NCBI GenBank assembly: GCA_947632405.1
Contig: CANRPE010000003.1
Span: 322-64,321 of the forward strand
DNA: 64,000 nucleotides
Source of the DNA: an uncultured Bacilli bacterium
GTDB taxonomy: Bacteria > Bacillota_I > Bacilli_A > RF39 > UBA660
Direction: 5' to 3'
The notes under the pieces were generated by a model, which was given only the letters and a program-made list of their open reading frames with translations, did not search any database and was not told the DNA's origin. This document shows, piece by piece, positions 5,824 through 60,311 of this stretch (within the stretch, counting starts at the first letter, position 1; the number at the start of each line of letters is the position of its first letter). Made by a program: the position numbers and the translations under genes.

Positions 5824-5837
5824 AGTGAGGTATTAGA

Positions 5838-7586
5838 ATGTCACAAATAACAGTAATGAATGATGATTTAGCTAATAAGATAGCAGCAGGGGAAGTTGTA
5901 GAAAAAACAATGAATGTTGTTAAAGAATTAGTTGAAAATAGTATTGATGCTAAAAGTAGTCATATAGAAATTAATTTGATTGATTCTGGTGTCAAAGAAA
6001 TAAAAGTAGAAGATGATGGTATAGGTATGGATCGTGATGATGCAGCATTAGCTTTCAGTCGTCATGCTACATCTAAACTAAAAAACTTAGATGATTTATT
6101 TAATATTTGTTCTTTAGGGTTTAGAGGTGAAGCCTTACCATCAATCGCAGCTGTTTCAAATTTAGAATTAAAAACATCAGATCAAAAAATAGGAACAAAA
6201 ATAACAATTGATGGTGGCAAAAATATGAAAATCGAAAATTCTGATTTACAAAAAGGAACTACTATCATTGTTAAAAATCTTTTTTATAATACTCCTGTTC
6301 GTTTAAAATATTTAAAAAACTTATATATTGAACTTTCATATATTACAGAATATGTAAATAAAATGGCTCTTGCTTATCCACATATTCAATTTAAATTGAC
6401 TAATAATGATAAAACTATATTATCAACGCCAGGTGATGGTGATTTATTAAAAGTAATTTATAGTATTTATGGACCAGATACAGCTAAAAAAATGATTGAA
6501 ATATCAGGAGAAAATGATGATTATTATATTAGTGGTTATATTTCTTATCCTGAACTTACTAAATCAAATCGAAATTCAATTACAACTCTTGTTAATGGTA
6601 GAGTTATTAAAAATAATTTATTAAATAAAGTTATAGTAGAATCTTATCATACTTATATTCCTAAAGATAAATTTCCAATTATTGTTTTAAATATTGATGT
6701 AGATCCAATTCTTGTTGATATTAATATTCATCCTACTAAAATGGATATTAAATTTTCTAAATTCGATACTTTACAAAATTTAATTGAAAAAACAATTAGT
6801 GAGCAATTAAAAACTCTTTTATTAATTCCAAAAGCAGAAGTAAGAGATGAAGTATCAATTCAAGAAATTAGTAAAATTACTCCTTTCAAAACTACAATTG
6901 AGTTAGATCAAGATATGAATAATAAAAATATTATTTATGAAGAAACTACTTTAGATTTTTCTGTAAATGAATCTTCAGATAATTATGAAGAAGATCATTA
7001 TAGAATTAAAAAAATGATTCCTAAAGGTATAGTTTATTTAACTTATATTATTGCAGAAAATGAAGATGGAATGTATATAATTGATCAACATGCTGCAGCC
7101 GAAAGAATTAATTATGAAAAAGTATTAAAAGATATAACTAGTGAACATAAGCAAATCTTCGATTTATTAGTACCTATAAAAATAGAACTTCCTGCAAATG
7201 AATATTTAATTTTGAAAAAGCATTTTGATATTTTAAATAACTTTGGTTTTTCAATTGAAGAATTTGGTCATAATACTGTAATTATTCGTAGTCATCCTAC
7301 ATGGATTAAAGAAGGATATGAGGAAGAAGATATTAGAAAAGTAATAGATATTATTATTTCAGAAGAAAAATTTGATTTAGACCGATTTATATGGAAAATT
7401 TCAGCAACTCAAGCATGTAGAATGAGTATTAAAGCTAATGATTATATCAATCAAGAAGATCAAGAATATTTATTAGATGAACTAAGAAAATGTGATAATC
7501 CTTTTACTTGTCCTCATGGCAGACCAACTATTATCACTTATACAAAATATGATTTAGAAAAACTATTTAAAAGATCAATAGATTAG
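5838..7586 (+). CDS. mutL: DNA mismatch repair protein MutL
   Basis: 582 aa. GHKL ATPase N-terminus (IAAGEVVE..VVKELVENSIDA, DDGIGM, GFRGEAL). C-terminal CPHGRP motif. Confidence 0.95.
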   Translation: MSQITVMNDDLANKIAAGEVVEKTMNVVKELVENSIDAKSSHIEINLIDSGVKEIKVEDDGIGMDRDDAALAFSRHATSKLKNLDDLFNICSLGFRGEALPSIAAVSNLELKTSDQKIGTKITIDGGKNMKIENSDLQKGTTIIVKNLFYNTPVRLKYLKNLYIELSYITEYVNKMALAYPHIQFKLTNNDKTILSTPGDGDLLKVIYSIYGPDTAKKMIEISGENDDYYISGYISYPELTKSNRNSITTLVNGRVIKNNLLNKVIVESYHTYIPKDKFPIIVLNIDVDPILVDINIHPTKMDIKFSKFDTLQNLIEKTISEQLKTLLLIPKAEVRDEVSIQEISKITPFKTTIELDQDMNNKNIIYEETTLDFSVNESSDNYEEDHYRIKKMIPKGIVYLTYIIAENEDGMYIIDQHAAAERINYEKVLKDITSEHKQIFDLLVPIKIELPANEYLILKKHFDILNNFGFSIEEFGHNTVIIRSHPTWIKEGYEEEDIRKVIDIIISEEKFDLDRFIWKISATQACRMSIKANDYINQEDQEYLLDELRKCDNPFTCPHGRPTIITYTKYDLEKLFKRSID

Positions 7587-14030: not shown

Positions 14031-14057
14031 AAAGTTGCACTTCGGTGTAATTTTTTC

Positions 14058-14088
14058 TTGCAAAATTACAAACGGGGGGGGGTATAAT
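14058..14088 (+). promoter_or_regulatory. cassette-1 promoter: TTGCAA -35, 19-nt spacer ending in a G9 tract (14074-14082), TATAAT -10
   Basis: Read directly: cTTGCAAaattacaaacGGGGGGGGGTATAATaatc. Preceded by the hairpin gttgcac-ttcg-gtgtaat plus a T-run (parC terminator). Confidence 0.6.
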
Positions 14089-14120
14089 AATCTTAGATAA
14101 ATAAAAATAGGTGATCTAGG

Positions 14121-15122
14121 ATGAAAGAAAAAATAAAAACTATTGCAATAATAATATTAATATTAATGGTAATATCAATAAGTGGAGTATACGCAGCAAC
14201 CATAATATCAAGTATAAATGTAGGATATAATAATGCAAGTTCTAAATTAGCAGCAGATAATGTTCAAGCTGCTATAGATGAAGTATATGATAAAAGTTTT
14301 TCAAAACCTTCAATAGTAGCATATGAATATAGTGAAAAAGATCCAAAATGTATAAATGGAGAAGAAAAAACATGTGTAAAGACAGACTGTTATAAAAAAG
14401 GAAAAACATGTAAACAAGGAACAGTTATCAAATATTATGTCAAAGAAAACGAATATCATTACTTTTACGTTCTAAGAGATGATGGAACAAAGATAACTAT
14501 GCAACAAAGAGAAAATACCATAAGAAATATACCATGGCATGCAGGAGCAAATGATAACAGCAAAGGACCAGATACAATCTTGCCACAATTAGAAGCAGCA
14601 ACTTCAACATGGGTAAATGTAAATGTGTTAAACTATGAACCTGGAGTAACAACATTATATGAAAATGCCAATACAGGCTGTACATATACAGCAAGTACAA
14701 CTTCTGATTATAAAATAAGATGCGAAAAGAACACATATACAAGTTCAGTATTAGGAAAAAGAAAAGCTCGTGCTAGAATGATAACAGCATTAGAAGCAGG
14801 AAGTACAGGTTGTTTGGTATACAAAGACGGCGCTACTGATAAAAGAGTTATACAACCAAGTATAAACGCATATAACTTTGGTTCATGTCCAGATTGGATG
14901 CATAATTATTTATGGGAATCAAAAAATTATGGTGGAAGTTATAATAATGATACAGTAAATGAAAACGAAAATCATGGTCATTGTTACTGGACCATGTCGG
15001 CTTACTCTGGTGACACTGCTTATGCGTGGAATGTGGGCCGTGCAGGTATCGTGAGCAGCGCCTACAATACTACTAATCCTCTCGGTGGTGCGCGTGCCGT
15101 TGTAGAAATAAATAAGTCATAA
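14121..15122 (+). CDS. secreted Cys-rich protein with C-terminal CLec/DUF1566-like domain; DGR variable protein, copy 1
   Basis: Signal peptide ending VYA|AT. C-terminus YWTMSAYSGDTAYAWNVGRAGIVSSAYNTTNPLGGARAVVEI. The 3' end is homologous to the TR. Confidence 0.85.
   Translation: MKEKIKTIAIIILILMVISISGVYAATIISSINVGYNNASSKLAADNVQAAIDEVYDKSFSKPSIVAYEYSEKDPKCINGEEKTCVKTDCYKKGKTCKQGTVIKYYVKENEYHYFYVLRDDGTKITMQQRENTIRNIPWHAGANDNSKGPDTILPQLEAATSTWVNVNVLNYEPGVTTLYENANTGCTYTASTTSDYKIRCEKNTYTSSVLGKRKARARMITALEAGSTGCLVYKDGATDKRVIQPSINAYNFGSCPDWMHNYLWESKNYGGSYNNDTVNENENHGHCYWTMSAYSGDTAYAWNVGRAGIVSSAYNTTNPLGGARAVVEINKS
14996..15103 (+). repeat. VR1, variable repeat of copy 1 (imperfect relative to the current TR)
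   Basis: Hand alignment to the TR. The first 52 nt differ only at 7 TR adenines. The rest carries further A-site changes, one T->G, one extra codon (aat), and a C->T in the 3' GC-rich end (gccgTtgta). Confidence 0.7.
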
Positions 15123-15147
15123 AATTACATATTATTTTATTTTTTTC

Positions 15148-15177
15148 TTGCAAAAACCAAAACGGGGGGGGTATAAT
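15148..15177 (+). promoter_or_regulatory. cassette-2 promoter: TTGCAA -35, 18-nt spacer ending in a G8 tract (15164-15171), TATAAT -10
   Basis: cTTGCAAaaaccaaaacGGGGGGGGTATAATagtc. One G shorter than in the other three cassettes. Confidence 0.6.
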
Positions 15178-15209
15178 AGTCTTAGATAAATAAAAATAGG
15201 TGGTCTAAG

Positions 15210-16211
15210 ATGAGAGAAAAAATTAAAATAGTAGTATCATTTATATTAGGGGGAATAATTTTAGGAGGAATTGGAGTATATGCAGCAACCATAATATCAA
15301 GTATAAATGTAGGATATAATAATGCAAGTTCTAAATTAGCAGCAGATAATGTTCAAGCTGCTATAGATGAAGTATATGATAAAAGTTTTTCAAAACCTTC
15401 AATAGTAGCATATGAATATAGTGAAAAAGATCCAAAATGTATAAATGGAGAAGAAAAAACATGTGTAAAGACAGACTGTTATAAAAAAGGAAAAACATGT
15501 AAACAAGGAACAGTTATCAAATATTATGTCAAAGAAAACGAATATCATTACTTTTACGTTCTAAGAGATGATGGCACAAAGATAACTATGCAACAAAGAG
15601 AAAATACCATAAGAAATATACCATGGCATGCAGGAGCAAATGATAACAGCAAAGGACCAGATACAATCTTGCCACAATTAGAAGCAGCAACTTCAACATG
15701 GGTAAATGTAAATGTGTTAAACTATGAACCTGGAGTAACAACATTATATGAAAATGCCAATACAGGCTGTACATATACAGCAAGTACAACTTCTGATTAT
15801 AAAATAAGATGCGAAAAGAACACATATACAAGTTCAGTATTAGGAAAAAGAAAAGCTCGTGCTAGAATGATAACAGCATTAGAAGCAGGAAGTACAGGTT
15901 GTTTGGTATACAAAGACGGCGCTACTGATAAAAGAGTTATATCTCCAAGTATAAACGCATATAATCAAGGTTCATGTCCAGACTGGATGCATAACTACTT
16001 ATATCAATCCAAAAATTATGGTGGTAGCTATAATAATGACACAGTAAACGAAAACGGAGTATATGATTATGATTACTGGACCATGTCGGCTGACTCTGGT
16101 GACACTGCTTATGCGTGGTTTGTGGGCCGTGGAGGTATCTTGGACAACCACGGCGCTACTAATGCTAACTATGGTGCGCGTGCCGTCGTCGAAATTACCA
16201 AATCATCATAG
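15210..16211 (+). CDS. secreted Cys-rich CLec/DUF1566-like protein; DGR variable protein, copy 2 (primary target)
   Basis: Identical to copy 1 over the central ~220 aa. C-terminus YWTMSADSGDTAYAWFVGRGGILDNHGATNANYGARAVVEITKSS contains VR2. Confidence 0.9.
   Translation: MREKIKIVVSFILGGIILGGIGVYAATIISSINVGYNNASSKLAADNVQAAIDEVYDKSFSKPSIVAYEYSEKDPKCINGEEKTCVKTDCYKKGKTCKQGTVIKYYVKENEYHYFYVLRDDGTKITMQQRENTIRNIPWHAGANDNSKGPDTILPQLEAATSTWVNVNVLNYEPGVTTLYENANTGCTYTASTTSDYKIRCEKNTYTSSVLGKRKARARMITALEAGSTGCLVYKDGATDKRVISPSINAYNQGSCPDWMHNYLYQSKNYGGSYNNDTVNENGVYDYDYWTMSADSGDTAYAWFVGRGGILDNHGATNANYGARAVVEITKSS
16085..16189 (+). repeat. VR2, variable repeat matching the TR
   Basis: 105 nt, colinear with TR 16429-16533 at a constant 344-nt offset with no indel. 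88 identities and 17 mismatches by hand count. Every mismatch sits where the TR has A (VR2 has G/T/C there). The 3' end ggtgcgcgtgccgtcgt is identical (IMH-like GC-rich block). Confidence 0.9.
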
Positions 16212-16220
16212 TGATTTGGT
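16197..16220 (+). promoter_or_regulatory. perfect 9-bp hairpin immediately 3' of VR2/IMH (accaaatca-tcatag-tgatttggt)
   Basis: Read directly; it spans the stop codon of copy 2. In position it matches the hairpin/cruciform downstream of the VR that is needed for retrohoming in the Bordetella phage DGR. The second arm is absent after copies 1, 3 and 4. Confidence 0.55.
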
Positions 16221-16428
16221 CTTTGCCGATAGGCATTAATGTGGAATAAGAAGGGATTATAATAAGGATGGTGATGCTGGTTTATTGATGGTTTAAAACG
16301 GAGTGGTAAAAAATGCTGAAAGCATTTTTGTGAAAAGAAGTTTCTTCTTTTCGTAAGGCGCCACAACTTGGTGCCTAAGATTTTGGGATAATACTGTGAT
16401 GTGTCGCGTGCTTTGGTACTGTCTTGGT

Positions 16429-16533
16429 GTCGGCTAACTCTGGTAACACTACTAATGCGTGGAATGTGAACCGTGAAGGTAACTTGAACAACAACAACAC
16501 TACTAATACTAACAATGGTGCGCGTGCCGTCGT
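16429..16533 (+). repeat. DGR template repeat (TR)
   Basis: Non-coding copy of the VR, rich in AAC/AAT codons in the VR frame (SANSGNTTNAWNVNREGNLNNNNTTNTNNGARAVV). I count 33 adenines. It lies upstream of the accessory genes and RT on the same strand. The ORF-track minus ORF 16169..16573 over it is spurious. Confidence 0.9.
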
Positions 16534-16883
16534 ATTTCTTTAAAACTAAATATTTATGACGTTTAATAGACAAATTATAAATAAAAAGCTAAAGAACAAG
16601 TATTATCCCACTTCTATTAGTATCTTTTAAAATAAGATATATAATATGAAGAAAAATATTATTAATGTGTAAATATATATGGTAACTACTAATTAGTGAA
16701 ATATGATAATTACAGTAAACATTAATATAAAATTTAAGTATTTGTAATGTTCAATATTTATGATACTACTTTGATTATACAAAGAAAGCCATAAATGAAG
16801 TTACAAAAAAAGGTGTAGTAGTATGTAAGCATCTTGTTTTTACTACTGCATCTTTTTATTTTAGAATAAAAGAGGTGTATATT

Positions 16884-17300
16884 ATGGTAGATTTATTTAG
16901 ATTATTAAAATTAGAATATAAAGATTATATTATATTATTTAAAAGTGGAAGTTTTTATTGTTGCTTGGATGAAGATGCTGTAGTAATAAGTAAATTATTT
17001 GATTATAAAATAAATGAATTAAGAAATCATATTAGAGTAGGTTTTCCAATTTCTTTGATAGACAAAAATACTGAAGTATTAAATAAGAAAAAAATTAGTT
17101 ATATTATAGTAGAAAATAAACAACTAGCAAAAATAAAGAAAATAAAAAATAATAATTATTCTAAGTATGTAGAAAGTGTATTTAATATAGTTAGTCTAAA
17201 TGCTAGAATAAATAAAATATGTGATACTTTAAAATCTATGAATGGTAAACAAGATATAGATGAATTATTAACTAAGATAGAGGATATTTTATATGGATAA
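16884..17300 (+). CDS. DGR accessory protein with MutS domain I-like (mismatch-binding-domain-like) fold
   Basis: LFRLLKLEYKDYIILFKSGSFYCCLDEDAVVISKLFDYKI...RVGFPISLIDKNTEVLNKKKISYIIVE aligns with the N-terminus of the MutS in this window ([43 protein letters not shown]...[27 protein letters not shown]). FYE is replaced by FYC. Start set at ATG 16884 after aaagagg. The stop overlaps the avd start (ATGGATAA). Confidence 0.65.
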   Translation: MVDLFRLLKLEYKDYIILFKSGSFYCCLDEDAVVISKLFDYKINELRNHIRVGFPISLIDKNTEVLNKKKISYIIVENKQLAKIKKIKNNNYSKYVESVFNIVSLNARINKICDTLKSMNGKQDIDELLTKIEDILYG

Positions 17301-17637
17301 TTCTAATATTATTCTAAGATTGAAAAAGACTATTATTTATGTAGATAAGGTATTAGAAAATTTTCCAAGGAATGAATATATATTAAAGAAAAGAATTAGT
17401 AATTGTATGTATGATATGTTAGAAGAATCATATGAAGCTTATTTAGATTATGAAAATAAGAATACAATAATTAAAAAAATTTTAACTAAAATGAAAATGT
17501 TAGATTTTTATTTAAAATTATCTTTTGATAAAAGTGCAATTTCTCATAAAAATATAAAAACTATTTCTATTAATTTAAGAGATATTACTAGTATGTATTA
17601 TGCTTGGTTTAATTCAAAAAATGAAACGAAAAAATAA
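17293..17637 (+). CDS. avd: accessory variability determinant (Avd; four-helix-bundle / S23-IVS-like protein)
   Basis: 114 aa, predicted all-helical. The LENFPRNEYILKKRISNCMYDMLEESYEA motif is typical of Avd/PF05635-like proteins. Lies directly upstream of the RT and overlaps it. Confidence 0.75.
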   Translation: MDNSNIILRLKKTIIYVDKVLENFPRNEYILKKRISNCMYDMLEESYEAYLDYENKNTIIKKILTKMKMLDFYLKLSFDKSAISHKNIKTISINLRDITSMYYAWFNSKNETKK

Positions 17638-18733
17638 TTTATATTATGCTATATGTAATTTAGATAATATTAGATTTATTTATGATACTAAAGTAAAAAT
17701 AACAACCAAAAATAAAAAGAAAGTATTAGGTTTTGATAATTATTATTTAGAAAATATATTTTCTATTAAGGATATTTTATCAAATGAAAAATATATTCCA
17801 GGTCATTATAATATTTTTTTAGTTAGTGAACCTAAAATTAGAGTAGTTATGAGTCAAAATATGTATGATAAAATTATTAATCATTTAGTTAGTTATTATA
17901 TATTGAAACCAGTTATTCTTCCTTGTTTAATAGAACAAAATGTTGCAACTAGGGAGTTAAAAGGAACTGATTATGGAATTAAATTATTTAAGAAATATTT
18001 AAATAAAATTAAATATGAAGCTGATGAATTTTATATTTTGAAATTTGATATATCCAAGTATTTTTATAATATTAATCATAAAGTATTAAAGGAAATGTTA
18101 AATAAGAAAATAAAGGATAAAAAGGCATTACATATTTTATATCAAATTATTGATAGTACAAATGAAAAATATATAAATAATAGTATTAAGCATTTAGTAG
18201 AATGTTATAAGAAAAAAGATATTAGTGAAAAAGTTAAAGAAGAATTAGATAAGATACCTATCTATGAAAATGGAAAGGGTTTACCTATTGGAAATATGAC
18301 AAGTCAAATATTAGCTATTTTTTATTTAAATGATTTAGATCATTATATAAAAGAAGAATTAAAAATTAAATATTATATTAGATATATGGATGATGGTATT
18401 TTAATGCATAAGGATAAGAATTATTTAAGATATTGTTTAGTTAAAATAAATGATATAGTTGAAAAATTTTATCATTTGAAGTTAAATAAGAAAACTAAAA
18501 TATTTTCTAGTAAAGAATCTATAGAATTTTTAGGTTTTAATTATAGATTAAGAAATAAAAAGTTAATTGTAAAAGTAAAAAATCAAACTAAAAAAAGATT
18601 TAAAAGAAAAATTAAAGCACTTAAAAAAAGTCATTCTGATAAATATCAACATGTAGTTGGAAGTTATAAAGGACATTTGAAGTATGCTAATAGTAAAAAT
18701 TTGTTATATGAAACTTTATCTAAGAGATATTAG
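17621..18733 (+). CDS. DGR reverse transcriptase
   Basis: RT motifs including YIRYMDDGIL (YxDD) and LPIGNMTSQILAIFYL, which is the DGR-specific [LIV]GxxxSQ motif. About 370 aa, with no maturase, endonuclease or RNase H domain. The start is either ATG 17600 or ATG 17621. Confidence 0.9.
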   Translation: MKRKNNLYYAICNLDNIRFIYDTKVKITTKNKKKVLGFDNYYLENIFSIKDILSNEKYIPGHYNIFLVSEPKIRVVMSQNMYDKIINHLVSYYILKPVILPCLIEQNVATRELKGTDYGIKLFKKYLNKIKYEADEFYILKFDISKYFYNINHKVLKEMLNKKIKDKKALHILYQIIDSTNEKYINNSIKHLVECYKKKDISEKVKEELDKIPIYENGKGLPIGNMTSQILAIFYLNDLDHYIKEELKIKYYIRYMDDGILMHKDKNYLRYCLVKINDIVEKFYHLKLNKKTKIFSSKESIEFLGFNYRLRNKKLIVKVKNQTKKRFKRKIKALKKSHSDKYQHVVGSYKGHLKYANSKNLLYETLSKRY

Positions 18734-18810
18734 ATATAGAATTATAAGTTATTTTCTAAATTAATATAGAATAGTTAAATTTAAAAAGTTACACTTGGTG
18801 TAATTTTTTC

Positions 18811-18841
18811 TTGCAAAAATATAAACGGGGGGGGGTATAAT
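18811..18841 (+). promoter_or_regulatory. cassette-3 promoter: TTGCAA -35, 19-nt spacer ending in G9 (18827-18835), TATAAT -10
   Basis: cTTGCAAaaatataaacGGGGGGGGGTATAATaatc, preceded by the hairpin ttacac-ttg-gtgtaa plus a T-run. Confidence 0.6.
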
Positions 18842-18873
18842 AATCTTAGATAAATAAAAATAGGTGATCTAGG

Positions 18874-19878
18874 ATGAAAGAAAAAATAAAAACTATTGCA
18901 ATAATAATATTAATATTAATATTAATGGTAATATCAATAAGTGGAGTATACGCAGCAACTATAATATCAAGTATAAATGTTGGTTATAGTAATGCAAATT
19001 CCAAGTTAGCAGCAGATAATGTTCAAGCTGCTATAGACGAAGTATATGATAAAAGTTTTTCAAAACCTTCAATAGTAGCCTATGAATATAGTGAAGAAGA
19101 TCCAAAATGTATAAATGGTGAAGAAAAAACATGTGTAAAAACAGATTGTTATAAAAAAGGAAAAATATGTAAACAAGGAACAGTTATCAAATATTATGTC
19201 AAAGAAAACGAATATCATTATTTTTATGTATTAAGAGATAACGGAACAATAATAACCATGCAACAAAGAGAAAACACAATAAGAAATATACCATGGCATG
19301 CGGGAACAAATGATAATAGTAAAGGACCTGATACAATATTACCAGCCTTAGAACAAGCAACTTCTACCTGGGTAAATGTAAATGTACTAGAATATGAACC
19401 TGGAGTAACGACATTATATGAAAATGTTTATACAGGTTGTACATGGACTGTAAGCACAACTTCTGATTATAAAATAAGGTGCGAAGCAAATAAATATACA
19501 AGTACAGTCTTAGGAACAAGAAAAGCACGAGCTAGAATGATAACAGCATTAGAAGCTTCAGCTACAGGTTGTTTAGTATGGAAAGATGGAACAACAGATA
19601 AAAGAATTATATCTCCAAGTATAAATGTATATAATGCTGGTTCTTGTCCAGACTTTATGCATAATTATCTGCATAATTCAAAAAATTATGGTGGTAGCTA
19701 TAATAATGATTCAACTAATGAAAAAGATGAATCTGATTCTGGTTATTGGACCATGTCAGCTCGTTCTAATAACTCAAATATAGCATTTGACGTTGGATTT
19801 GGTGGTAATATGAATTATTATAATACTACAGATACTAAAGATGGAGCACGAGCAGTTGTCGAAATAACCAAATCATAA
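18874..19878 (+). CDS. secreted Cys-rich CLec/DUF1566-like paralog, copy 3 (no TR-matching VR)
   Basis: Clearly homologous to copies 1 and 2, but diverged at many positions. C-terminus YWTMSARSNNSNIAFDVGFGGNMNYYNTTDTKDGARAVVEITKS is encoded by AT-rich codons with many non-A differences from the TR. Confidence 0.85.
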   Translation: MKEKIKTIAIIILILILMVISISGVYAATIISSINVGYSNANSKLAADNVQAAIDEVYDKSFSKPSIVAYEYSEEDPKCINGEEKTCVKTDCYKKGKICKQGTVIKYYVKENEYHYFYVLRDNGTIITMQQRENTIRNIPWHAGTNDNSKGPDTILPALEQATSTWVNVNVLEYEPGVTTLYENVYTGCTWTVSTTSDYKIRCEANKYTSTVLGTRKARARMITALEASATGCLVWKDGTTDKRIISPSINVYNAGSCPDFMHNYLHNSKNYGGSYNNDSTNEKDESDSGYWTMSARSNNSNIAFDVGFGGNMNYYNTTDTKDGARAVVEITKS

Positions 19879-19902
19879 ATTACACTTCGGTGTAATTTTT
19901 AC

Positions 19903-19933
19903 TTGCAAAAATATAAACGGGGGGGGGTATAAT
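19903..19933 (+). promoter_or_regulatory. cassette-4 promoter: TTGCAA -35, 19-nt spacer ending in G9 (19919-19927), TATAAT -10
   Basis: cTTGCAAaaatataaacGGGGGGGGGTATAATaatc, preceded by the hairpin aattacac-ttcg-gtgtaatt. Confidence 0.6.
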
Positions 19934-19965
19934 AATCTTAGATAAATAAAAATAGGTGATCTAGG

Positions 19966-20964
19966 ATGAAAGAAAAAATAAAAACTATTGCAATAATAAT
20001 ATTAATATTAATGGTAATATCAATAAGTGGAGTATACGCAGCAACTATAATATCAAGTATAAATGTAGGATATAGTAATGAAAGTTCCAAGTTAGTAGCA
20101 GATAATGTTCAAGATGCAATAGATGAAGTATATGATAAAAGTTTTAATAAAGAATTAATAACAGCCTATGAATATAGTGAACAAGAACCAAAATGTATAA
20201 ACGGAGAAGAAAAGACATGTGTAAAAACAGATTGTTATAAAAAAGGACAAACATGTGAACAAGGAACAGTTATAAAATATTATGTCAAAGAAAATGAATA
20301 TCATTATTTCTATGTATTAAGAGATGATGGCACAAAAATAACTATGCAACAAAGAGAAAATACCATAAGAAATATAGCATGGCATGCAGGAGAAAATGAT
20401 AATAGTAAAGGGCCAGATACAGTATTACTAGCTTTAGAACAAGCAACTTCAACGTGGACAAATGTAAATATAATAGAATATGAGCCAGGGATAACTAATT
20501 TATATGAAAATGCTTACACAGGTTGTACCTATAATTCAGGTACTTCAGGAGATTATAAAATAAAATGTGAAACAAATACATATACAAGTTCAGTCTTAGG
20601 AACAAGAAAAGCACGAGCAAGGATGATTACAGCATTAGAAGCAGGAAGTACAGGTTGCTTAGTATACAAAGATGGTGCTGCTGATAATAGAGTTATTCAA
20701 CCAAGTATAAACGCATGGAATAATGGTTCCTGTCCAGATTTTATGCATAATTATTTATATGGATCAAAAAATACTGGAGGAAGTTATAATAATGATACAG
20801 TAAATGAAAATGAAGTATATGATTATGCCTACTGGACAATGTCTTCTTACTCTGATGATACTACTCTCGCATGGTGTATAAATCGTGGTGGTAACTTTGA
20901 TGATAGTGGAGTTACTGGTACTGGAGTTGGTGCACGAGCAGTCGTAGAAATTGATAAAGATTAA
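19966..20964 (+). CDS. secreted Cys-rich CLec/DUF1566-like paralog, copy 4 (no TR-matching VR)
   Basis: Same family. C-terminus YWTMSSYSDDTTLAWCINRGGNFDDSGVTGTGVGARAVVEIDKD, with the GARAVV block encoded as ggtgcacgagcagtcgta. A terminator hairpin follows (aataaac...gtttatt plus T-run). Confidence 0.85.
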   Translation: MKEKIKTIAIIILILMVISISGVYAATIISSINVGYSNESSKLVADNVQDAIDEVYDKSFNKELITAYEYSEQEPKCINGEEKTCVKTDCYKKGQTCEQGTVIKYYVKENEYHYFYVLRDDGTKITMQQRENTIRNIAWHAGENDNSKGPDTVLLALEQATSTWTNVNIIEYEPGITNLYENAYTGCTYNSGTSGDYKIKCETNTYTSSVLGTRKARARMITALEAGSTGCLVYKDGAADNRVIQPSINAWNNGSCPDFMHNYLYGSKNTGGSYNNDTVNENEVYDYAYWTMSSYSDDTTLAWCINRGGNFDDSGVTGTGVGARAVVEIDKD

Positions 20965-21043
20965 TTTATAATAAACTGATAACTTATTGGTTTATTTTTT
21001 TTATTATTCTTGCTATAATATAAATAGAAGGAAGGTAGAAAAT

Positions 21044-34394: not shown

Positions 34395-34471
34395 GGACCC
34401 TTAGCTCAGTTGGTTAGAGCATCCGGCTCATAACCGGGCGGTCATAGGTTCAAGTCCTATAGGGTCCACCA
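34395..34471 (+). tRNA. tRNA with CAU anticodon (elongator Met or lysidine-modified Ile2)
   Basis: Hand-folded cloverleaf: acceptor ggaccct/agggtcc, D arm gctc/gagc, anticodon loop ctCATaa, T arm atagg-ttcaagt-cctat, encoded CCA. It lacks initiator features. Confidence 0.85.
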
Positions 34472-34479
34472 TTTCAAGC

Positions 34480-34564
34480 GCGGGTATGGCGGAATTGGCA
34501 GACGCGCTAGACTTAGGATCTAGTGCCGTAAGGCTTGCAGGTTCAACTCCTGTTACCCGCACCA
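34480..34564 (+). tRNA. tRNA-Leu (UAG)
   Basis: Acceptor gcgggta/tacccgc, anticodon loop ctTAGga, long variable arm, T loop ggttcaactcc, encoded CCA. The ORF-track ORF 34486..34677 over it is spurious. Confidence 0.85.
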
Positions 34565-34581
34565 GATTGATACCAAACTCG
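34558..34581 (+). repeat. 24-bp direct repeat, left copy (tRNA-Leu 3' end plus flank; att-like)
   Basis: cgcaccagattgataccaaactcg is repeated exactly at 38899-38922. Confidence 0.7.
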
Positions 34582-34653
34582 GACTTTTATAATTCGAGTA
34601 TGTATAACAAAAGACAACTTGCAAAAAAGTTGTTTTTATGTTATGATGTATTT

Positions 34654-34771
34654 GTCAAGGAAACTTGCATAAAATAAAAAAGGATACATTTGATTGCAGG
34701 AATCAGATGTTATCCCTTATGGAATGCATCTGAAATCAACGATTGTTGAAATCAGATGCTTTTGCTATTTT
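34654..34771 (+). ncRNA. putative antitoxin sRNA of type I TA-like module A
   Basis: Promoter TTGCAA(34619-34624)-17 nt-TGtTATGAT(-10 at 34642-34647). Terminator hairpin 34726-34759 plus a U-run. It is antisense to the 3' end and 3' UTR of the small minus-strand ORF. Confidence 0.45.
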
Positions 34772-34842
34772 AGAAGTAAAATAATTACGACTAAGAATAG
34801 GAGTAATATTATAATAAATTGAGAAAATTCTCTTTTTGTCAT
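34765..34842 (-). CDS. 25-aa hydrophobic peptide, putative type I toxin A
   Basis: Not in the ORF track (too short). SD aaaggtggtga, 5 nt, ATG. MTKREFSQFIIILLLFLVVIILLLK*. Own promoter TTGTAC(34949-34944)-17 nt-TGtTATAAT(34926-34921). Minus-strand terminator at 34715-34672. Confidence 0.55.
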   Translation of the reverse strand: MTKREFSQFIIILLLFLVVIILLLK

Positions 34843-35022
34843 AAATATCACCACCTTTCTTTTATCATTTGATAAATAGAAAGGGAAAGCATCTGATATA
34901 TTTCAAATGTATCCAATAACATTATAACAAACAAATGTTCTTTGTACAATGATTTATACTAAATTTTGACAATTAAAAAAACACACTTGCATATTGACAA
35001 TCAATATGCATAATGTAGTTAT

Positions 35023-35514
35023 TTAATTTTTTCTTTTAGGAAAAATGTTTCTCATTAGTTTTTGTATTTTTTTTTCTTTATTTGGTAAAGTCATTTTCAA
35101 TTGTCCTTGTTTAAACAATAAAATATCTCTTAATGAATACATTTTAAAATCTAATAATTCACATTGAGTGACCATATCCAAATTTTTTTTACGTTCCTTT
35201 AATGACATTGAATTAAATTGTTTGGCAATTTGATTTTTTGATTGAGCGATGCTTTGTCCCATTTCTATAATCTCATCATCTGATAAATCTTTTACTGAAT
35301 CATAATCAATTATCCAATCAAGACCGTTAAAAAATTCAATTTCACTAGGATCTTCAAATTTAAAAAAATCATATCTATTATCATTATTAATTATTACTAT
35401 GCCATTCCCAAAAACTTTCATAAATATTGAAGCAGGAATAGGTAAATCTGTATGATGTAAGTAAGCTATATCATTTTTTTGAACATAAACTGCATTTTCT
35501 GTTATTATTTTCAC
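35023..35514 (-). CDS. hypothetical protein
   Basis: 163-aa ORF, followed by the perfect palindrome tgcatattg-acaat-caatatgca (about 34990-35012) as a likely terminator. No motif recognised. Confidence 0.5.
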   Translation of the reverse strand: MKIITENAVYVQKNDIAYLHHTDLPIPASIFMKVFGNGIVIINNDNRYDFFKFEDPSEIEFFNGLDWIIDYDSVKDLSDDEIIEMGQSIAQSKNQIAKQFNSMSLKERKKNLDMVTQCELLDFKMYSLRDILLFKQGQLKMTLPNKEKKIQKLMRNIFPKRKN

Positions 35515-35757
35515 TATAAAAACCTCCCATTGGTTATATATTATAGCATAGAATTTGAAAGTTTTAACAAATATTTAATATTTTTAGTAATTTTGTATTA
35601 TGCTATAATTAATTAATAGTTTATTACTTACTATTTCTTTTACTCATAAGTTGTTGTACTCCTTCCTTTAGATTACTAGATAAATAGGAAACTCGAACTT
35701 TTATAGTAAATATAAAACGTACTTGATAAAAGTGCGTTTTTATGTTATTATGAATAT

Positions 35758-35877
35758 ATCAAGGAAACTTGAATAAAATAAAAAAGGGAACATTCAGTTT
35801 TTGCGAGTTGAATGTCTACCCAATTAATATTGTTTAGACATTTAATTCAGTTTGAAGAATTAAGTGTCATTTTTTTA
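35758..35877 (+). ncRNA. putative antitoxin sRNA of type I TA-like module B
   Basis: Promoter TTGATA(35723-35728)-17 nt-TGtTATTAT(-10 at 35746-35751). Strong terminator gacatttaattc-agtttgaa-gaattaagtgtc (35837-35868) plus a U-run. It overlaps the stop codon of toxin ORF B. Confidence 0.45.
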
Positions 35878-35959
35878 TTACTACTATCATAACGATAAGG
35901 AGAAATAAAATGATAGTAATGAGCTTTAGAGCTTTTATGAAAAAAGTCTTAGTTTTCAT
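35867..35959 (-). CDS. 30-aa hydrophobic peptide, putative type I toxin B
   Basis: SD aaaggaggt, 9 nt, ATG. MKTKTFFIKALKLITIILFLLIVMIVVIKK*. Promoter TTGTAC(36054-36049)-17 nt-TGgTATACT(36031-36026). Confidence 0.55.
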   Translation of the reverse strand: MKTKTFFIKALKLITIILFLLIVMIVVIKK

Positions 35960-36147
35960 TTTTATCAAACCTCCTTTCTATAAATATTGGAGGTAGACAC
36001 TCAACAACTGATATTCCCTATAAAAAGTATACCAAACAATTGTTCTTTGTACAATAGAATTTGATATTAAATTTATGACAGTTTAAAAAACACACCTGCA
36101 TATGGACAATATCACTATAGAAAAAGAAACGAAAAGTGGAATTTTTG

Positions 36148-36456
36148 ATGATAAAATTTAGTGTTAATTTGTACGAAACAGATGATTTATTATTATCAAA
36201 ATTTATGAAACAAAATAGTATTAAAAGTAAGTCATAGGCACTAAGAAAATATATTCAACTTGCAGTGAATTTAGAATCAAGAAATGATTTATTAATGGAC
36301 ATAGATAATAAATTAAATAGAATCATTTATAGAGAAAATGTTCAAAATAAATTATTAGAACAATTTTATGCAAATATGGAATTTCCAGTTAATCAAAATG
36401 TTAAAACTGAACCAAGTCTTGTTCGATTTTATGAGAATAATAGTTTATATAAATAA
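36148..36456 (+). pseudogene. ribbon-helix-helix (CopG/Arc-like) gene interrupted by an in-frame TAG at 36235-36237
   Basis: ATG 36148: MIKFSVNLYETDDLLLSKFMKQNSIKSKS*ALRKYIQLAVNLESRND.... This is the RHH pattern (beta strand, then helix, with S-x-S-[E/K/Q]-ALRKYI). The ORF-track ORF 36265..36456 is the same frame downstream of the stop. Confidence 0.5.
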
Positions 36457-36545
36457 AATTATAAATTAGAGTTAAAAGAATAATTTACTTAAAAATTTTT
36501 ATATATAGTGTTATAATATAATACAATTGATTTGGTGGTGGTGTT

Positions 36546-38795
36546 ATGCAAGAAAGTAAATATTACTATAATGGCATACCCTTATCTAAGTATTGTAAAG
36601 ATAATGATATTAATATAAGTACTATACGAGCAAGAATATGGAAAAAGAAGCAAAATCGAAAATATGAAAATTATACGGAACAAGAAATTGTAGATATGGT
36701 TATAGAAGCTTATGGTAGTGGAAGTATTAAATACATGTATAAAGGTATATCTTTAAGACAATATTGTTTAGATAACGGTATTAATATAGGAACTATAAAT
36801 TCCAGAATAAAGAATTTAAAAAAGAAAAATAAAAATCTATCAAATGATGAATTAGTAATTTTAGCAATAGAAGAATTTGATAATCAAAATTTTAGATTTT
36901 TTTATCACGGTATACCTTTAAAAGAGTATTGTAAATGTCATCCTGAAATAAATTACAATACTATTAGAATCTATATCAATGGAGAAAAAGAAAAAAATCC
37001 AAAATTGTCTGATGAAGAACTTATTGAACAATATTTAAATAAAGAACACAAAGGAAGTTATAAATATTACTATTTAGGCATACCACTAAAACAATATTGC
37101 GATGAAAATAATTTGAATTATAGAAATATAACTACATATATGCGCAGATATAGAAATACTGATAACTTTAAAGGTTTAAGCGATGATGAATTTGTTGAAG
37201 CAATTATGAATCAATATCAACCATTTGAACCTAAATATTTATATAACGGAGTAACATTAAGAGAGTATTGTATTCAAAATGATTTATCATATTATAGTGT
37301 AGTATCTTTTGTAAAAAGAAAATTAGCGAAAGATAGTACGAAAAGTATTGATGATTTAATTGATGAAGGGATAAATACAATAAATAGGTATGGAATAATT
37401 TATTATTATAAAGGTACACCTTTAAAAGATTACGCAGAACAAAATAACTTAAATGTAAGCTCGATTCGTGTTGCTATTTTAAGAAAGCAAATAATAAGTG
37501 ATAAACCACTACAAGAAATAATTGATGAATGTGTTGAATCTTATCAAAAATTTTCTATAAAGTACTACTATGATGGAATACCACTTATAACATATTGTAA
37601 TAGTATTGGTTTGAATTATAATACAGTAATTAATAATTATTTATATGAATATGCTGACAATACAGATATGTCAACTGATGATGCAATTAAGCAAATTGTA
37701 GATTATTATATAGAACATCCACCAGTAAATACTAAATATTATTTTAATGATCAATCACTTAGAAAATTTTGTGATATAAATGGCTATCCTTATTTATCAA
37801 TCTATAGAAGAATTAAAACATTGGAGTCTAAAGATGACTTTTTAGATAGTGAACAAATTATAATCTCAGCAATAAAAAAATATGAAGATAGATTGCAAAT
37901 AAATAAGATAAATGAAATATTTGATAAATTAAAAGATAAAAAAATAAGTAATATTAATGAAATAAAAGATATATGTGATTTTTTAAAAATTGATTTTGAA
38001 AATGTCAATGATTTAATTAATATGGATTTTTCATATAATCAAGCAATTAATATGATATGGTATTTTTCTGATAAAAAAACTATTGATGACTATAAAATAA
38101 TTACAGATAAAAAAATAAAAGAAGTTTTTTCTTTTATTGATAATTTAAAAAATTCTAATATAGATATTCAAGAATTAAAATTATATGATTTAATAGGTAT
38201 CTACAAAAGTGAATTGTATGATTCAAGAAATGAAATATTATTGAGGCAAAAAAAGTATATTCATAAAACAATATTTTCCTTATGTAGAAACTATGAAGTT
38301 AAAGTTAATAGTAGTAATTATGAAGATTTTGAAAGCGAGATAAAATATTATTTACTTATGGTAATAAATCGTATTAGTTTAAATATAGAAGGACAAATAA
38401 TTAAATATATAGATTTAATTATAAAGGGTTATTTTAAAACTTATTTAAAAAAATATAAGAAGCAAAATAACAGTTTATCATTAAATGATGTTGAATATTC
38501 TAATGATAGAGGCACGAGAAAAGAAAAATTAAGAATCGATTATTTAGCTGATCCTGATAATCCATATGAAAAAACAGAAAATACTTCATTTAGTTCTGAT
38601 ATGATGCAAGTGTTGTCAACTTTATCGTCTGAAGATTTATCACTTGTTATGTTAAAATACCAAGAAAATTATAGTGATGATGATTTAGCAAATCATTTTA
38701 ATTTAACAATTGATGAAATAAACCAAAAAGAAATAGAAATATTATCTTTATTGAAAAATAACGATAATGTAAAATCATTAAAAAAAAGAAAATAA
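36546..38795 (+). CDS. large repeat protein with sigma-70-like C-terminus (eight N-terminal ~56-aa HTH-like repeats)
   Basis: Eight repeats of the pattern [YF]xYxG[IV]xLxxYCxxNxLNxxT[IV]xxR (YYYNGIPLSKYCKDNDINISTIRARI, YMYKGISLRQYCLDNGINIGTINSRI, FFYHGIPLKEYCKCHPEINYNTIRIYI, and so on). The C-terminus EDLSLVMLKYQENYSDDDLANHFNLTIDEINQKEIEILSLLKNN resembles sigma-70 region 4. Confidence 0.6.
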   Translation: MQESKYYYNGIPLSKYCKDNDINISTIRARIWKKKQNRKYENYTEQEIVDMVIEAYGSGSIKYMYKGISLRQYCLDNGINIGTINSRIKNLKKKNKNLSNDELVILAIEEFDNQNFRFFYHGIPLKEYCKCHPEINYNTIRIYINGEKEKNPKLSDEELIEQYLNKEHKGSYKYYYLGIPLKQYCDENNLNYRNITTYMRRYRNTDNFKGLSDDEFVEAIMNQYQPFEPKYLYNGVTLREYCIQNDLSYYSVVSFVKRKLAKDSTKSIDDLIDEGINTINRYGIIYYYKGTPLKDYAEQNNLNVSSIRVAILRKQIISDKPLQEIIDECVESYQKFSIKYYYDGIPLITYCNSIGLNYNTVINNYLYEYADNTDMSTDDAIKQIVDYYIEHPPVNTKYYFNDQSLRKFCDINGYPYLSIYRRIKTLESKDDFLDSEQIIISAIKKYEDRLQINKINEIFDKLKDKKISNINEIKDICDFLKIDFENVNDLINMDFSYNQAINMIWYFSDKKTIDDYKIITDKKIKEVFSFIDNLKNSNIDIQELKLYDLIGIYKSELYDSRNEILLRQKKYIHKTIFSLCRNYEVKVNSSNYEDFESEIKYYLLMVINRISLNIEGQIIKYIDLIIKGYFKTYLKKYKKQNNSLSLNDVEYSNDRGTRKEKLRIDYLADPDNPYEKTENTSFSSDMMQVLSTLSSEDLSLVMLKYQENYSDDDLANHFNLTIDEINQKEIEILSLLKNNDNVKSLKKRK

Positions 38796-38898
38796 ATTAA
38801 AATTGTATATAGTATTATATTTAATTAATAAACACGATACAATCTTTTTATCAAATGGGATGAATCATACTGTAAGGTGTAAAAAACCCTTTTGCAAA

Positions 38899-38922
38899 CG
38901 CACCAGATTGATACCAAACTCG
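38899..38922 (+). repeat. 24-bp direct repeat, right copy (att-like)
   Basis: An exact copy of 34558-34581. Followed by a third copy of the promoter module (TTGATA 38952-38957, 17 nt, TGcTATTAT with the -10 at 38975-38980). Confidence 0.7.
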
Positions 38923-39050
38923 AACTTTTATAGTAAAAATAGAAAACGCACTTGATAAAGGTGCGTTTTTATGCTATTATGCATTTGTCAGTCTTCTTAG
39001 AAAATACTTAGATACTAATAAACTATATACTTTTAGGGAGGTAATTATAA

Positions 39051-56939: not shown

Positions 56940-57032
56940 ATTTTCAACCCCTTTTTGGCTACTTTCTATGGTATTTTATCTTTTTTTATTATATAATATA
57001 TTTAGTATAATATCAAGGAGTGAAATCAAAAA

Positions 57033-57674
57033 ATGTTAAAATTAAATAAAAAGGGATTTGCTTTAATTGAGACTTTAGTTGTGACTGTTTTTGTTGCTAC
57101 TATTTTTTCAATGATGTATACAAATTTTTTTCCAATGATGGGTGAGTATGAACGTAGAGAAACATATGATGATATTGATACTATTTATAAAACTTATTTA
57201 ATTAAAAGAATGTTAGAAGACAGTAATTTTTCTGAATTTAAGAAGAATATTAGTAATCTTAAAACTAGTAGTCCTTATTATAAAGAAATTTTTAGTGCTC
57301 AATATGATCCTGTTTATAATAAAGGAGAAATTAACATGAAAAGTCAAGATATTATAAATTCTTGTAATAAATTAACTACTATAAGTGAAAGCAGAACTTA
57401 TTGCCAAAATCTATTTACGGAAATTAAAGCAACTAAAATTTATTTAGCAAGCTATAATATTACTAATTTAAAAAAAGAAATAAAAAAAGGAAGTACTGTT
57501 ATTAGTGGTATAGATAATGAAACACGAGAATATATAAATACACTCCCATATTATATAAATGAAGATATTTGTAATTATCGCATTATTGTAAAATATGCTA
57601 AAGAATTGAATAAAGAAAGTGATCTTGCTGGTACTGTAATTAATAGTTTTACAACGATAGGAGTTAAATTATGA
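57033..57674 (+). CDS. pilin-like protein (prepilin-type N-terminal motif)
   Basis: MLKLNKKGFALIETLVVTVFVATIF: a G|FALIE cleavage/methylation motif. Confidence 0.7.
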   Translation: MLKLNKKGFALIETLVVTVFVATIFSMMYTNFFPMMGEYERRETYDDIDTIYKTYLIKRMLEDSNFSEFKKNISNLKTSSPYYKEIFSAQYDPVYNKGEINMKSQDIINSCNKLTTISESRTYCQNLFTEIKATKIYLASYNITNLKKEIKKGSTVISGIDNETREYINTLPYYINEDICNYRIIVKYAKELNKESDLAGTVINSFTTIGVKL

Positions 57675-58267
57675 TAGTTAAAAAATTAAATAATAAGGGA
57701 TTAACAGCAATTGAGGTATTAGTATCTTTTGCTTTAATTAGTGTTATAATTATTTCAATGTTTAATGTTATAAATAATTATAAAGATAAAGAAGATTTAG
57801 AATCTTATAAAACTGATGTTACTACTTATAAAAATACTTTAACGAAAACAATTTATGATGATATCATAGCTAATGATGGAGTTACAAAAACATGTAATGC
57901 TAGTGATGATTGCTCAACTTGTGTTAGTCAAACAATTGATTCAAGTGCTAGTGACTTAACTGCTAATTTTGAATATAAGTTAAAATTATGTTATAAAAGA
58001 GTAAATAAATCAGCTACAATTGTAGTTCATAATAATGATGATAAAAGTGAATATTATGTAGATTTTATTGATAGTACAAATAATAAAGAAAGATTTAAAT
58101 TACCTAGTTTATATAATGTAAAATTCAATGAAATTGCTACTTATCAAGAACCTAAAACCTCTTTTATTAGAATTCATATAGGTTTATGGACAGCTGATTT
58201 TGGAACTAAATATGATGCTTTAAATATTATTACTCCAAATACAGCTGTTTATCCTAAGGCATTATGA
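57671..58267 (+). CDS. minor pilin-like protein (degenerate prepilin motif)
   Basis: KLNNKGLTAIEVLVSFALISVIIISMF: G|LTAIE. Overlaps the upstream pilin gene through ATGA. Confidence 0.6.
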   Translation: MIVKKLNNKGLTAIEVLVSFALISVIIISMFNVINNYKDKEDLESYKTDVTTYKNTLTKTIYDDIIANDGVTKTCNASDDCSTCVSQTIDSSASDLTANFEYKLKLCYKRVNKSATIVVHNNDDKSEYYVDFIDSTNNKERFKLPSLYNVKFNEIATYQEPKTSFIRIHIGLWTADFGTKYDALNIITPNTAVYPKAL

Positions 58268-60229: not shown

Positions 60230-60311
60230 TTGAAAAAATATACTTAGCGCAGTATATTTTTTCTTTTAACTTTTTTGATATTTTGATATAATATTTTTAG
60301 TGGTGAACAAT

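Follow-up and report, generated by a model that had tools for sequence, protein, structure and literature searches.

The diversity-generating retroelement (DGR) of phage BPP-1 (mtd-avd-TR-brt) transfers sequence from a template repeat (TR) to a variable region (VR) with adenine-specific changes. Its efficient homing requires a hairpin or cruciform together with the initiation of mutagenic homing (IMH) block, and this structure is sufficient to retarget the element (PMC3240598). A second described group, the MSL-containing 'Architecture D' (Legionella; Bacteroides Bfr/Bth/Bun), joins a MutS-domain-I accessory protein (MSL) to the accessory protein Avd and the reverse transcriptase (RT). This accessory class was described in 16 of 372 DGRs, always with avd (Wu et al. 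2018, PMC5758913), and occurs in Bacteroides DGRs too (bioRxiv 10.1101/2024.11.15.621889). Several targets may also share one element, as with tvpA and seven remote targets in Treponema denticola and eight tandem targets in Stenotrophomonas (PMC5758913). Here we analyzed a stretch of 64,000 nt at 25% GC (contig CANRPE010000003.1 of GCA_947632405.1, positions 322-64,321 of the forward strand), hereafter the window, from an uncultured Bacilli bacterium. We conclude, with a probability of about 0.9, that it carries a complete, active, chromosomal and non-phage DGR of the MSL-Avd-RT type whose TR diversifies the 3′ end of a gene that we call T2, and we infer phase variation in addition. An initial annotation, made from the sequence alone, had proposed a complete DGR acting on this gene, and every test that we ran supports it.

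The element resembles that of BPP-1 in its adenine-specific TR-to-VR transfer, its bRT-homologous RT with the [LIV]GxxxSQ motif, its Avd partner, a VR at the C-terminus of a predicted lectin-like binding protein, and a GC-rich block that ends the VR with a hairpin just downstream. It differs from BPP-1 in being cellular, in the order target-TR-MSL-avd-RT with TR upstream of avd, and in the extra MSL. Here an AT-rich hairpin overlaps the stop codon, the target is not an Mtd homologue, and the 17-nt GC block is identical in TR and VR, which differ only from the next base on. The presence of the MSL gene with Avd and RT, and no HRDC gene, places the element in 'Architecture D' (Wu et al. 2018, PMC5758913; bioRxiv 10.1101/2024.11.15.621889). 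Unlike known MSL DGRs, its host belongs to the uncultured low-GC Bacilli ('Tenericutes' in some records of metagenome-assembled genomes, MAGs), its target family lacks a Pfam model and differs from the pilus tip proteins of Bacteroides, and it lies in an array of paralogs with apparently one competent target. The architecture is thus known, and such elements are common in this clade of low-GC uncultured gut Bacilli.

Adenine-specific divergence and variation of VR2

The core parts of the element are the following.

15210-16211, plus strand: T2, DGR target gene, 333 aa, with a signal-like N-terminus, a Cys-rich body and a predicted lectin-like variable face at the C-terminus
16085-16189, plus strand: VR2, variable region of T2 (residues 293-327), including the GC-rich IMH-like block at 16173-16189
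16429-16533, plus strand: TR, template repeat, 105 nt with 33 adenines
17293-17637, plus strand: Avd accessory protein, 114 aa
17600-18733, plus strand: DGR reverse transcriptase, 377 aa, with IGNMTSQ and YMDD motifs

The initial annotation had described a 105-nt TR colinear with the 3′ end of T2, and an ungapped comparison reproduced its counts exactly: 88 of 105 positions are identical and all 17 mismatches (11 A>G, 5 A>T and 1 A>C) fall on TR adenines. With 33 adenines in 105 nt, the probability of this outcome by chance is 7e-11 (hypergeometric), which answers the proposed check for adenine bias. When the whole window was scanned with the TR, four partial matches were found, each at the 3′ end of one of four paralogous genes (T1-T4), and there was no match on the opposite strand. 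In the VR2 frame the TR reads SANSGNTTNAWNVNREGNLNNNNTTNTNNGARAVV. Its 35 codons include 13 AAY, five ACT and one GAA, in agreement with the described dominance of AAC and AAT. The GC-rich 3′ block noted earlier is GGTGCGCGTGCCGTCGT, common to TR (16517-16533) and VR2 (16173-16189), and homology ends right after it. An inverted repeat follows this block downstream of VR2 and not after TR; the IMH-type role of the two is predicted from sequence.

The Avd-like gene and the RT lie downstream on the same strand, as had been described. The nearest solved structure to the RT is Bordetella phage bRT (8ub7, 1.4e-29), with its IGNMTSQ aligned to IGSLTSQ of bRT, and the match to the phage RT family phrog_1423 reaches 8.6e-83, whereas group II intron and retron-type RTs score 1.9e-9 or weaker. 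Both the motif, [LIV]GxxxSQ rather than the group II/retroviral QGxxxSP, and the similarity searches support a place of the RT in the DGR clade, in line with the profile check that had been suggested. Models of defence RTs gave generic matches only, with no specific DRT, retron or Abi match, and we rejected a defence, retron or group II intron RT, since bRT and phrog_1423 match far better. Beside it, Avd matches Pfam bAvd (43.8 bits, cut-off 40) and the PHROG family 'Avd protein of DGR' (6.3e-15); its NCBIfam DivGenRetAVD score of 53.6 bits is under the cut-off of 80.

Relatives of the RT number at least 80 in gut MAGs labelled uncultured Bacilli, 'Tenericutes', Erysipelotrichaceae, Candidatus Onthousia and others. 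About half of 80 related RT loci have the MSL-Avd-RT layout, and in many a crude TR/VR caller found an A-biased pair upstream. These caller counts are lower bounds, because the caller missed the window's own pair, whose exact seeds are >40 nt apart. Four closer DGRs (L098, L101, L103 and L106; RT 67-78% identical) share the order target, hairpin, leader, TR, spacer, MSL, Avd and RT, and are located at other chromosomal sites than the window element. In a more distant relative (L079, 4231-10963; ParC 58% identical), two short open reading frames (ORFs) and then a 5′-truncated RT come after parE-parC, without MSL or Avd. All that these short ORFs carry of the T family is its N-terminal 'signal + NVQxAIDELY' segment, and a DGR may have decayed here at the chromosomal position that the window element occupies.

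Contigs of three further ENA samples (L095, L096 and L097) encode an RT protein identical to that of the window. All three have undamaged, identical ORFs for RT, Avd and MSL, and an exact copy of the TR. Over 2.7-3 kb of the cassette, the three assemblies match the window outside VR2. L097 is identical over 2,825 nt but for 13 substitutions, all in 16092-16167, and L095 and L096 have substitutions at 11 and 9 sites only, all in 16107-16168. One 6-nt indel, also carried by L095 and L096, was attributed to the start of T3 (signal peptide). Mismatches between VR2 and TR were on adenines in 16 of 17, 17 of 17 and 15 of 16 cases in L095, L096 and L097, or 48 of 50 in all, and the four assemblies have four different VR2 sequences. 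The search for polymorphism restricted to A sites, which the initial annotation had asked of population data, was therefore positive at the consensus level in three assemblies. VR2 has diverged from TR specifically at adenines, and it continues to vary at adenine sites between samples. The wider family has the same pattern: among 109 homologues, entropy is 3.0 bits where the TR codon has an A, 0.76 bits at the other VR positions (P = 2.6e-6) and 0.97 bits over the rest of the protein.

Several observations weigh against an active element. The VR2 variants are consensus sequences of assemblies that all come from a single ENA project, with 8-10x coverage, and 2 of the 50 mismatches are at non-adenines. 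Non-A states at TR positions 40-41 and 47 (0-based) are common to all VR2 variants and T1, so that fully independent rewriting would need selection or partial conversion. A sister DGR (RT 73% identical) had no VR variation in three samples, which means that activity is not general in the clade. The same identity of the sister VR in three samples also indicates that the VR2 differences are not an assembly artefact. The sister target (L098, 4700-5719; also L099 and L100) has an in-frame TAA within its signal-peptide region and a G10 promoter tract. Perhaps this DGR is silenced, or perhaps its target is a pseudogene.

The VR2 differences might instead come from recombination or gene conversion among the paralogs, with the retroelement a relic, and the static sister DGR would fit such a view. 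The paralogs are indeed mosaic. The DNA of T1 and T2 is near-identical between about nt 80 and 838 of the gene (~750 nt) and differs at both ends: in the signal peptide at one and, at the other, in the final 170 nt, where some of the differing positions are upstream of VR. This pattern points to recent duplication or gene conversion between them. However, conversion from the known paralogs would import non-A changes and an altered GC block, while 48 of 50 mismatches are at TR adenines and the window differs only within 16092-16168, with up to 2.7 kb of flank identical. The intact and identical RT, Avd and MSL ORFs in all these assemblies argue against a relic. We consider this explanation very improbable and an active DGR the better account of VR2.

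The target family, its paralogs and its setting

The initial annotation had counted three further paralogs around the target, and four paralogous genes of 332-334 aa are present, all with N-terminal hydrophobic signal-like segments. The other three genes and the hairpin after VR2 are as follows.

14121-15122, plus strand: T1, paralog of the target, 333 aa; VR-equivalent at 14996-15103
18874-19878, plus strand: T3, paralog, 334 aa; VR-equivalent at 19755-19859, not a clean target
19966-20964, plus strand: T4, paralog, 332 aa; VR-equivalent at 20841-20945, static
16197-16220, plus strand: 10-bp hairpin, ACCAAATCAT / CATA / GTGATTTGGT, 8 nt 3′ of VR2 and overlapping the T2 stop codon

Compared with the TR, T2 has 17 substitutions at A and 0 at non-A, an intact GC block and the hairpin downstream. 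T1 has 19 substitutions (16 at A, 3 non-A) and a 3-nt indel, one change (C>T) in the GC block, and no downstream hairpin. T4 has 39 substitutions (20 at A, 19 non-A), three GC-block changes and no hairpin, and T3 has 41 (13 at A, 28 non-A) with a block drifted by five changes to GGAGCACGAGCAGTTGT and only the 5′ arm of the hairpin. The retained arm suggests that the duplication break-points were inside the hairpin. All GC-block changes in T1, T3 and T4 are synonymous and towards A/T in this 25% GC genome, as would be expected if retrohoming no longer refreshes the block.

Among T1-T4 the hairpin follows the VR in T2 only, and none follows the TR in the DNA fold. It is found at the same place in five related DGR targets (T2 and those of four sister DGRs), where 4 of its 10 pairs have compensatory changes. 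By analogy with BPP-1, we regard the hairpin or cruciform at 16197-16220 as a candidate target-recognition element.

Could all four paralogs be current targets of one TR, as in the multi-target DGRs of Treponema and Stenotrophomonas? Around 15% of DGRs are multi-target (PMC5758913), and the window resembles them in having several paralogs with VR-like ends near one RT and TR. The YWTMS...GARAVV frame is common to all four, the whole T family is hypervariable exactly at TR-adenine codons, and T1 in particular has most of its substitutions at adenines with a single GC-block change. Unlike the targets of those systems, the extra copies here fail the A-only pattern, since T3 and T4 carry 28 and 19 non-adenine mismatches and GC blocks with 5 and 3 synonymous A/T-ward changes, and T1, T3 and T4 all lack the downstream hairpin kept in the five related targets. 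T4 at least is invariant in the population: its 3′ end, including the VR-equivalent, is 100% identical in three other assemblies (L108-L110), one of them the sample whose VR2 differs at 13 sites. We therefore judge simultaneous targeting of all four improbable. T2 appears to be the only live target, with T1 probably a recently frozen copy, and T1, T4 and T3 would be progressively older duplicates that have lost the hairpin and whose GC blocks drift to A/T.

Further T-family paralogs occur in two ENA assemblies (ERZ27249295 and ERZ27249300; L081-L084) from samples with the strain's DGR, at 82-84% DNA identity to T1-T4 and similar coverage, and the family may therefore exceed the four copies of the window. 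Downstream of each there is a G9 promoter, and their 3′ ends are of the terminator type and lack the recognition hairpin. The L081/L082 and L083/L084 paralogs have 12 and 22 non-A mismatches to the TR, and each encodes the same protein in two samples with differing VR2, which also counts against multi-target activity. For the close target homologues P0002 and P0016 (NCBI MAGs), a locus look-up found nothing on record. Other close homologues are on contigs of only 1.1-1.3 kb, and a metagenome scan for target homologues returned 10 loci, all at <=60% identity.

Sequence searches of the target against Pfam, NCBIfam, PHROG and PDB gave nothing significant, and the absence of a significant match to any lectin family, in searches that included 109 family members, counts against a lectin assignment. 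T1-T4 have no match to DUF1566/Lcl_C (PF07603) at E<0.1; 5 of the 109 members match it below threshold (best E 0.0055), and 4 of 109 match DUF6273 (PF19789), also below threshold (best E 0.0093). The AlphaFold model of T2, built from the 109 sequences, has a predicted local distance difference test (pLDDT) score of 85 and a predicted template modelling (pTM) score of 0.79. The VR is on its last beta-strands, where 10-residue block means of pLDDT are 93-98. In Foldseek searches the model matched gut-phage DUF6273 proteins in BFVD (E 5e-5 to 1e-2, probability up to 1.0, template modelling score 0.3-0.4). The top PDB match was 9qa6, the Thomasclavelia ramosa IgA peptidase (E 1.1e-3), whose N-terminal domain is annotated as DUF6273 (PMC12402451), and there were many weak matches to C-type lectins and FGE/EgtB, individually non-significant (E 1-4). 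An earlier account of C-lec-like DGR target domains includes DUF6273 (PMC10743442).

A lectin-like, surface-exposed binding module is thus well supported as the predicted nature of the target. The lectin-like part of the proposed DUF1566/C-type-lectin scaffold stands on the resemblance of the model to DUF6273 and C-lec folds, and the DUF1566 part does not, as those matches are below threshold. Secretion of the variable protein, as claimed earlier, is predicted from its signal-peptide-like N-terminus. T2 is like the gut-phage DUF6273/C-type-lectin DGR proteins (tentaclins, Faecalibacterium prophages) in its predicted fold, with the VR as C-terminal beta-hairpins. It is unlike them in its sub-threshold sequence similarity, its extra Cys-rich N-terminal lobe and signal peptide, and its cellular rather than virion setting. 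An exhaustive profile search for the target module retrieved 1,414 representative clusters, in which the module often terminates large surface proteins that bear Listeria-Bacteroides repeats (Flg_new), BspA leucine-rich repeats or Ig-like domains. Residues ~33-77 of T2 (~15306-15440; …NVQAAIDEVYDK…) match 44 separate stretches of a 5,298-aa protein (P0261), so the N-terminal segment of the T proteins is a repeat module in giant proteins.

These phage-like folds, together with the matches of RT and Avd to PHROG families, would suit an element that is part of a prophage, with the targets as phage receptor-binding proteins. The surroundings speak otherwise. Eight same-strand genes, named here T1, T2, a MutS_I-only ORF, Avd, RT, T3 and T4, lie between parE/parC upstream and deoD downstream, which confirms the housekeeping position between parC and deoD given earlier; yfmF and yfmH are also among the flanking genes. 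No phage structural or integrase genes are nearby. Each target has a promoter of its own and an N-terminus like a signal peptide, and none matches PHROG; the target module also ends large cellular surface proteins. On the basis of the flanks and the lack of phage structural and integrase genes nearby, we rejected a prophage origin, which we hold to be the least credible of the alternatives, in favor of a chromosomal DGR.

Structured RNA, MSL and the proposed mechanism

The non-coding sequence around the TR and the genes relevant to mismatch repair are listed below.

16306-16428, plus strand: conserved leader 5′ of TR, with three hairpins at ~16306-16382 followed by conserved GGGATAATACTGTGATGTGTCGCGTG
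16534-16874, plus strand: structured non-coding spacer 3′ of TR, starting with ATTTCTTTAAAACTAA and ending in a 17-bp hairpin and T-run at ~16806-16870
16884-17300, plus strand: MSL, MutS-domain-I-only accessory protein, 138 aa from the likely ATG (ORF 16875-17300 with a GTG start)
5829-7586: host MutL, full-length
60279-62861: host MutS, full-length

DGR RTs need RNA that flanks the TR, and structured flanks fit this need. The 663-nt stretch between the T2 stop codon and MSL (16212-16874) folds much more stably than shuffled sequences, with z = -8.7. The non-coding sequence on both sides of the TR (16290-16428 and 16534-16874) is strongly conserved and structured in the window and the four closer DGRs. 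The three hairpins 5′ of the TR occur across these five DGRs, and ATTTCTTTAAAACTAA directly 3′ of the TR is invariant in the five loci. In the ~340-nt spacer, 24 of 105 predicted pairs have compensatory changes in the five loci, and the spacer closes with a terminator-like hairpin ahead of the MSL ribosome-binding site. Rfam has no family for this RNA, its sole match being a chance hit to mir-84 at the terminal hairpin. The comparison of five sequences is suggestive of a DGR RNA scaffold characteristic of the clade.

The MSL ORF, between TR and Avd, was overlooked in the initial annotation. It matches Pfam MutS_I (2.4e-8; 34.6 bits, cut-off 20.6) and aligns with residues 22-51 at the N-terminus of host MutS. 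At 138-141 aa, with avd and without HRDC, it is within the range of the described class of MutS domain I homologues (112-283 aa). Across ~40 MSL homologues of related loci, conservation extends to the motifs G-x-F-Y, DDA and GFP. In about seven related loci (L020, L025, L026, L028, L030, L055 and L060; RT ORFs of ~500 aa) the RT carries MutS_I as a C-terminal fusion and there is no separate gene for it; Wu et al. saw such fusions in three RTs (PMC5758913).

In Bacteroides, deletion of mutS raised retrohoming 5-10 fold (bioRxiv 10.1101/2024.11.15.621889). We speculate that MSL binds the mismatch-dense heteroduplex of cDNA and VR and so limits its reversal by host MutS/MutL. MSL retains the Phe of the Phe-X-Glu mismatch-binding motif of MutS. 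The Glu (Glu38), replaced by Cys in MSL and not conserved in the ~40 homologues, counts against this role.

In the mechanism that we propose, a structured non-coding RNA of ~0.6 kb would carry the 105-nt TR. The RT/Avd complex would copy it and, as in other members of the family, misincorporate opposite the 33 template adenines. The resulting cDNA would replace VR2 at the 3′ end of T2, with the GC block as anchor and, by analogy with BPP-1, the downstream hairpin as an aid. MSL might bind the cDNA/VR heteroduplex and restrain reversal by the MutS and MutL that the window itself encodes. In this way 19 codons could be recoded on the C-terminal face of a putative secreted or surface lectin-like protein. 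Simple arithmetic (13 AAY codons with 15 residues each, five ACT with 4 and one GAA with 5) gives ~1e19 possible proteins.

Promoter tracts and wider implications

A promoter-like site with a G tract inside its spacer precedes each paralog.

14058-14088, plus strand: T1 site, TTGCAA, 19-nt spacer, TATAAT; G9 at 14074-14082, with G9 also in L111
15148-15177, plus strand: T2 site, TTGCAA, 18-nt spacer, TATAAT; G8 at 15164-15171
18811-18841, plus strand: T3 site, 19-nt spacer; G9 at 18827-18835
19903-19933, plus strand: T4 site, 19-nt spacer; G9 at 19919-19927

The TTGCAA-N-TATAAT motif is ~45 nt upstream of the ATG in each case. The homopolymers of at least 8 nt between -35 and -10 (G9, G8, G9 and G9) mean that tract length sets spacer length, and a promoter scan allowing 16-18 nt spacers reported the T2 site only of the four. 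These tracts are the sole G/C runs >=7 in the 64 kb, with ~0.016 runs >=G8 expected by chance. G8, G9 and G10 tracts stand at the same promoter position in homologues 40-60% identical to T2 (L085, L086 and L092) and in the sister-DGR target L098, although the sequence around them has diverged.

The poly-A tract of Mycoplasma hyorhinis vlp is an example of promoter phase variation. The window resembles such homopolymer-tract promoters (M. hyorhinis vlp, Neisseria nspA) in having a mononucleotide run between -35 and -10 of members of a surface-protein family. Phase variation by homopolymeric promoter tracts is described as a general phenomenon (PMC2831843, PMC6389960). Because of their position and conservation, we take the poly-G tracts as candidate sites of slipped-strand phase variation, by which the array is probably also switched. 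Unlike known phase-variable promoters, orthologous tracts had no length polymorphism (T3 was G9 in 4 assemblies and T1 G9 in 2), which weakens this proposal; lengths vary only among paralogs and among homologues (G8, G9 and G10). A full-text literature search returned no report of poly-G tracts coupled to a DGR target family.

More tentatively, and we would not bet on it, the locus may work as a two-tier system. The DGR would rewrite the master copy T2. Each duplication would sever the hairpin, the GC block would decay without retrohoming, and the resulting duplicates (T1, T4, T3 and others elsewhere) would form an expanding archive of frozen specificities. Every copy would retain a poly-G promoter, and slipped-strand switching would select among the stored variants and the evolving one. 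It is conceivable in such a system, at similarly low odds, that T2 (G8, 18-nt spacer) has the best-placed promoter now, and that the G9 copies with 19-nt spacers are down-shifted.

Elsewhere in the window, a region at 34395-38990 starts with tRNA-Met and tRNA-Leu (34395-34564). Direct repeats of the tRNA-Leu 3′ end and its flank (35672-35705, 74% identity; 38899-38932, 97%) bracket two small islets, one of which encodes a 754-aa protein (36531-38795) with tandem repeats of ~55 aa. The islets look like tRNA-targeted insertions. At 57024-58267, two adjoining small ORFs begin with hydrophobic segments like those of pilins (KGFALIETLVV and KGLTAIEVLV). The second has a borderline N_methyl match (21.0 bits, cut-off 21.2), and the pair may serve competence or encode type IV pilin-like proteins. 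Under table 11 the long housekeeping ORFs remain unbroken, and genetic code 4 (TGA = Trp) was rejected on this ground.

The VR2 variants are direct sequence evidence of current activity in a cellular DGR of an uncultured gut lineage, which most catalogued DGRs lack. To a known architecture the locus adds this evidence of activity, one apparently live target beside three apparently frozen ones, a conserved hairpin and putative RNA scaffold, and a possible poly-G overlay. Four near-identical genes within 7 kb, of which apparently only one is rewritten, provide built-in controls for target choice. Between T2 and the others, 1-5 synonymous changes in the 17-nt GC block and the loss of a 10-bp hairpin pinpoint what target recognition in this clade may need. 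The combination of MSL with a host that has both MutS and MutL is a setting in which the unexplained function of MSL could be probed. Should the poly-G promoters phase-vary, two mechanisms of hypervariation would act on one surface-protein family.

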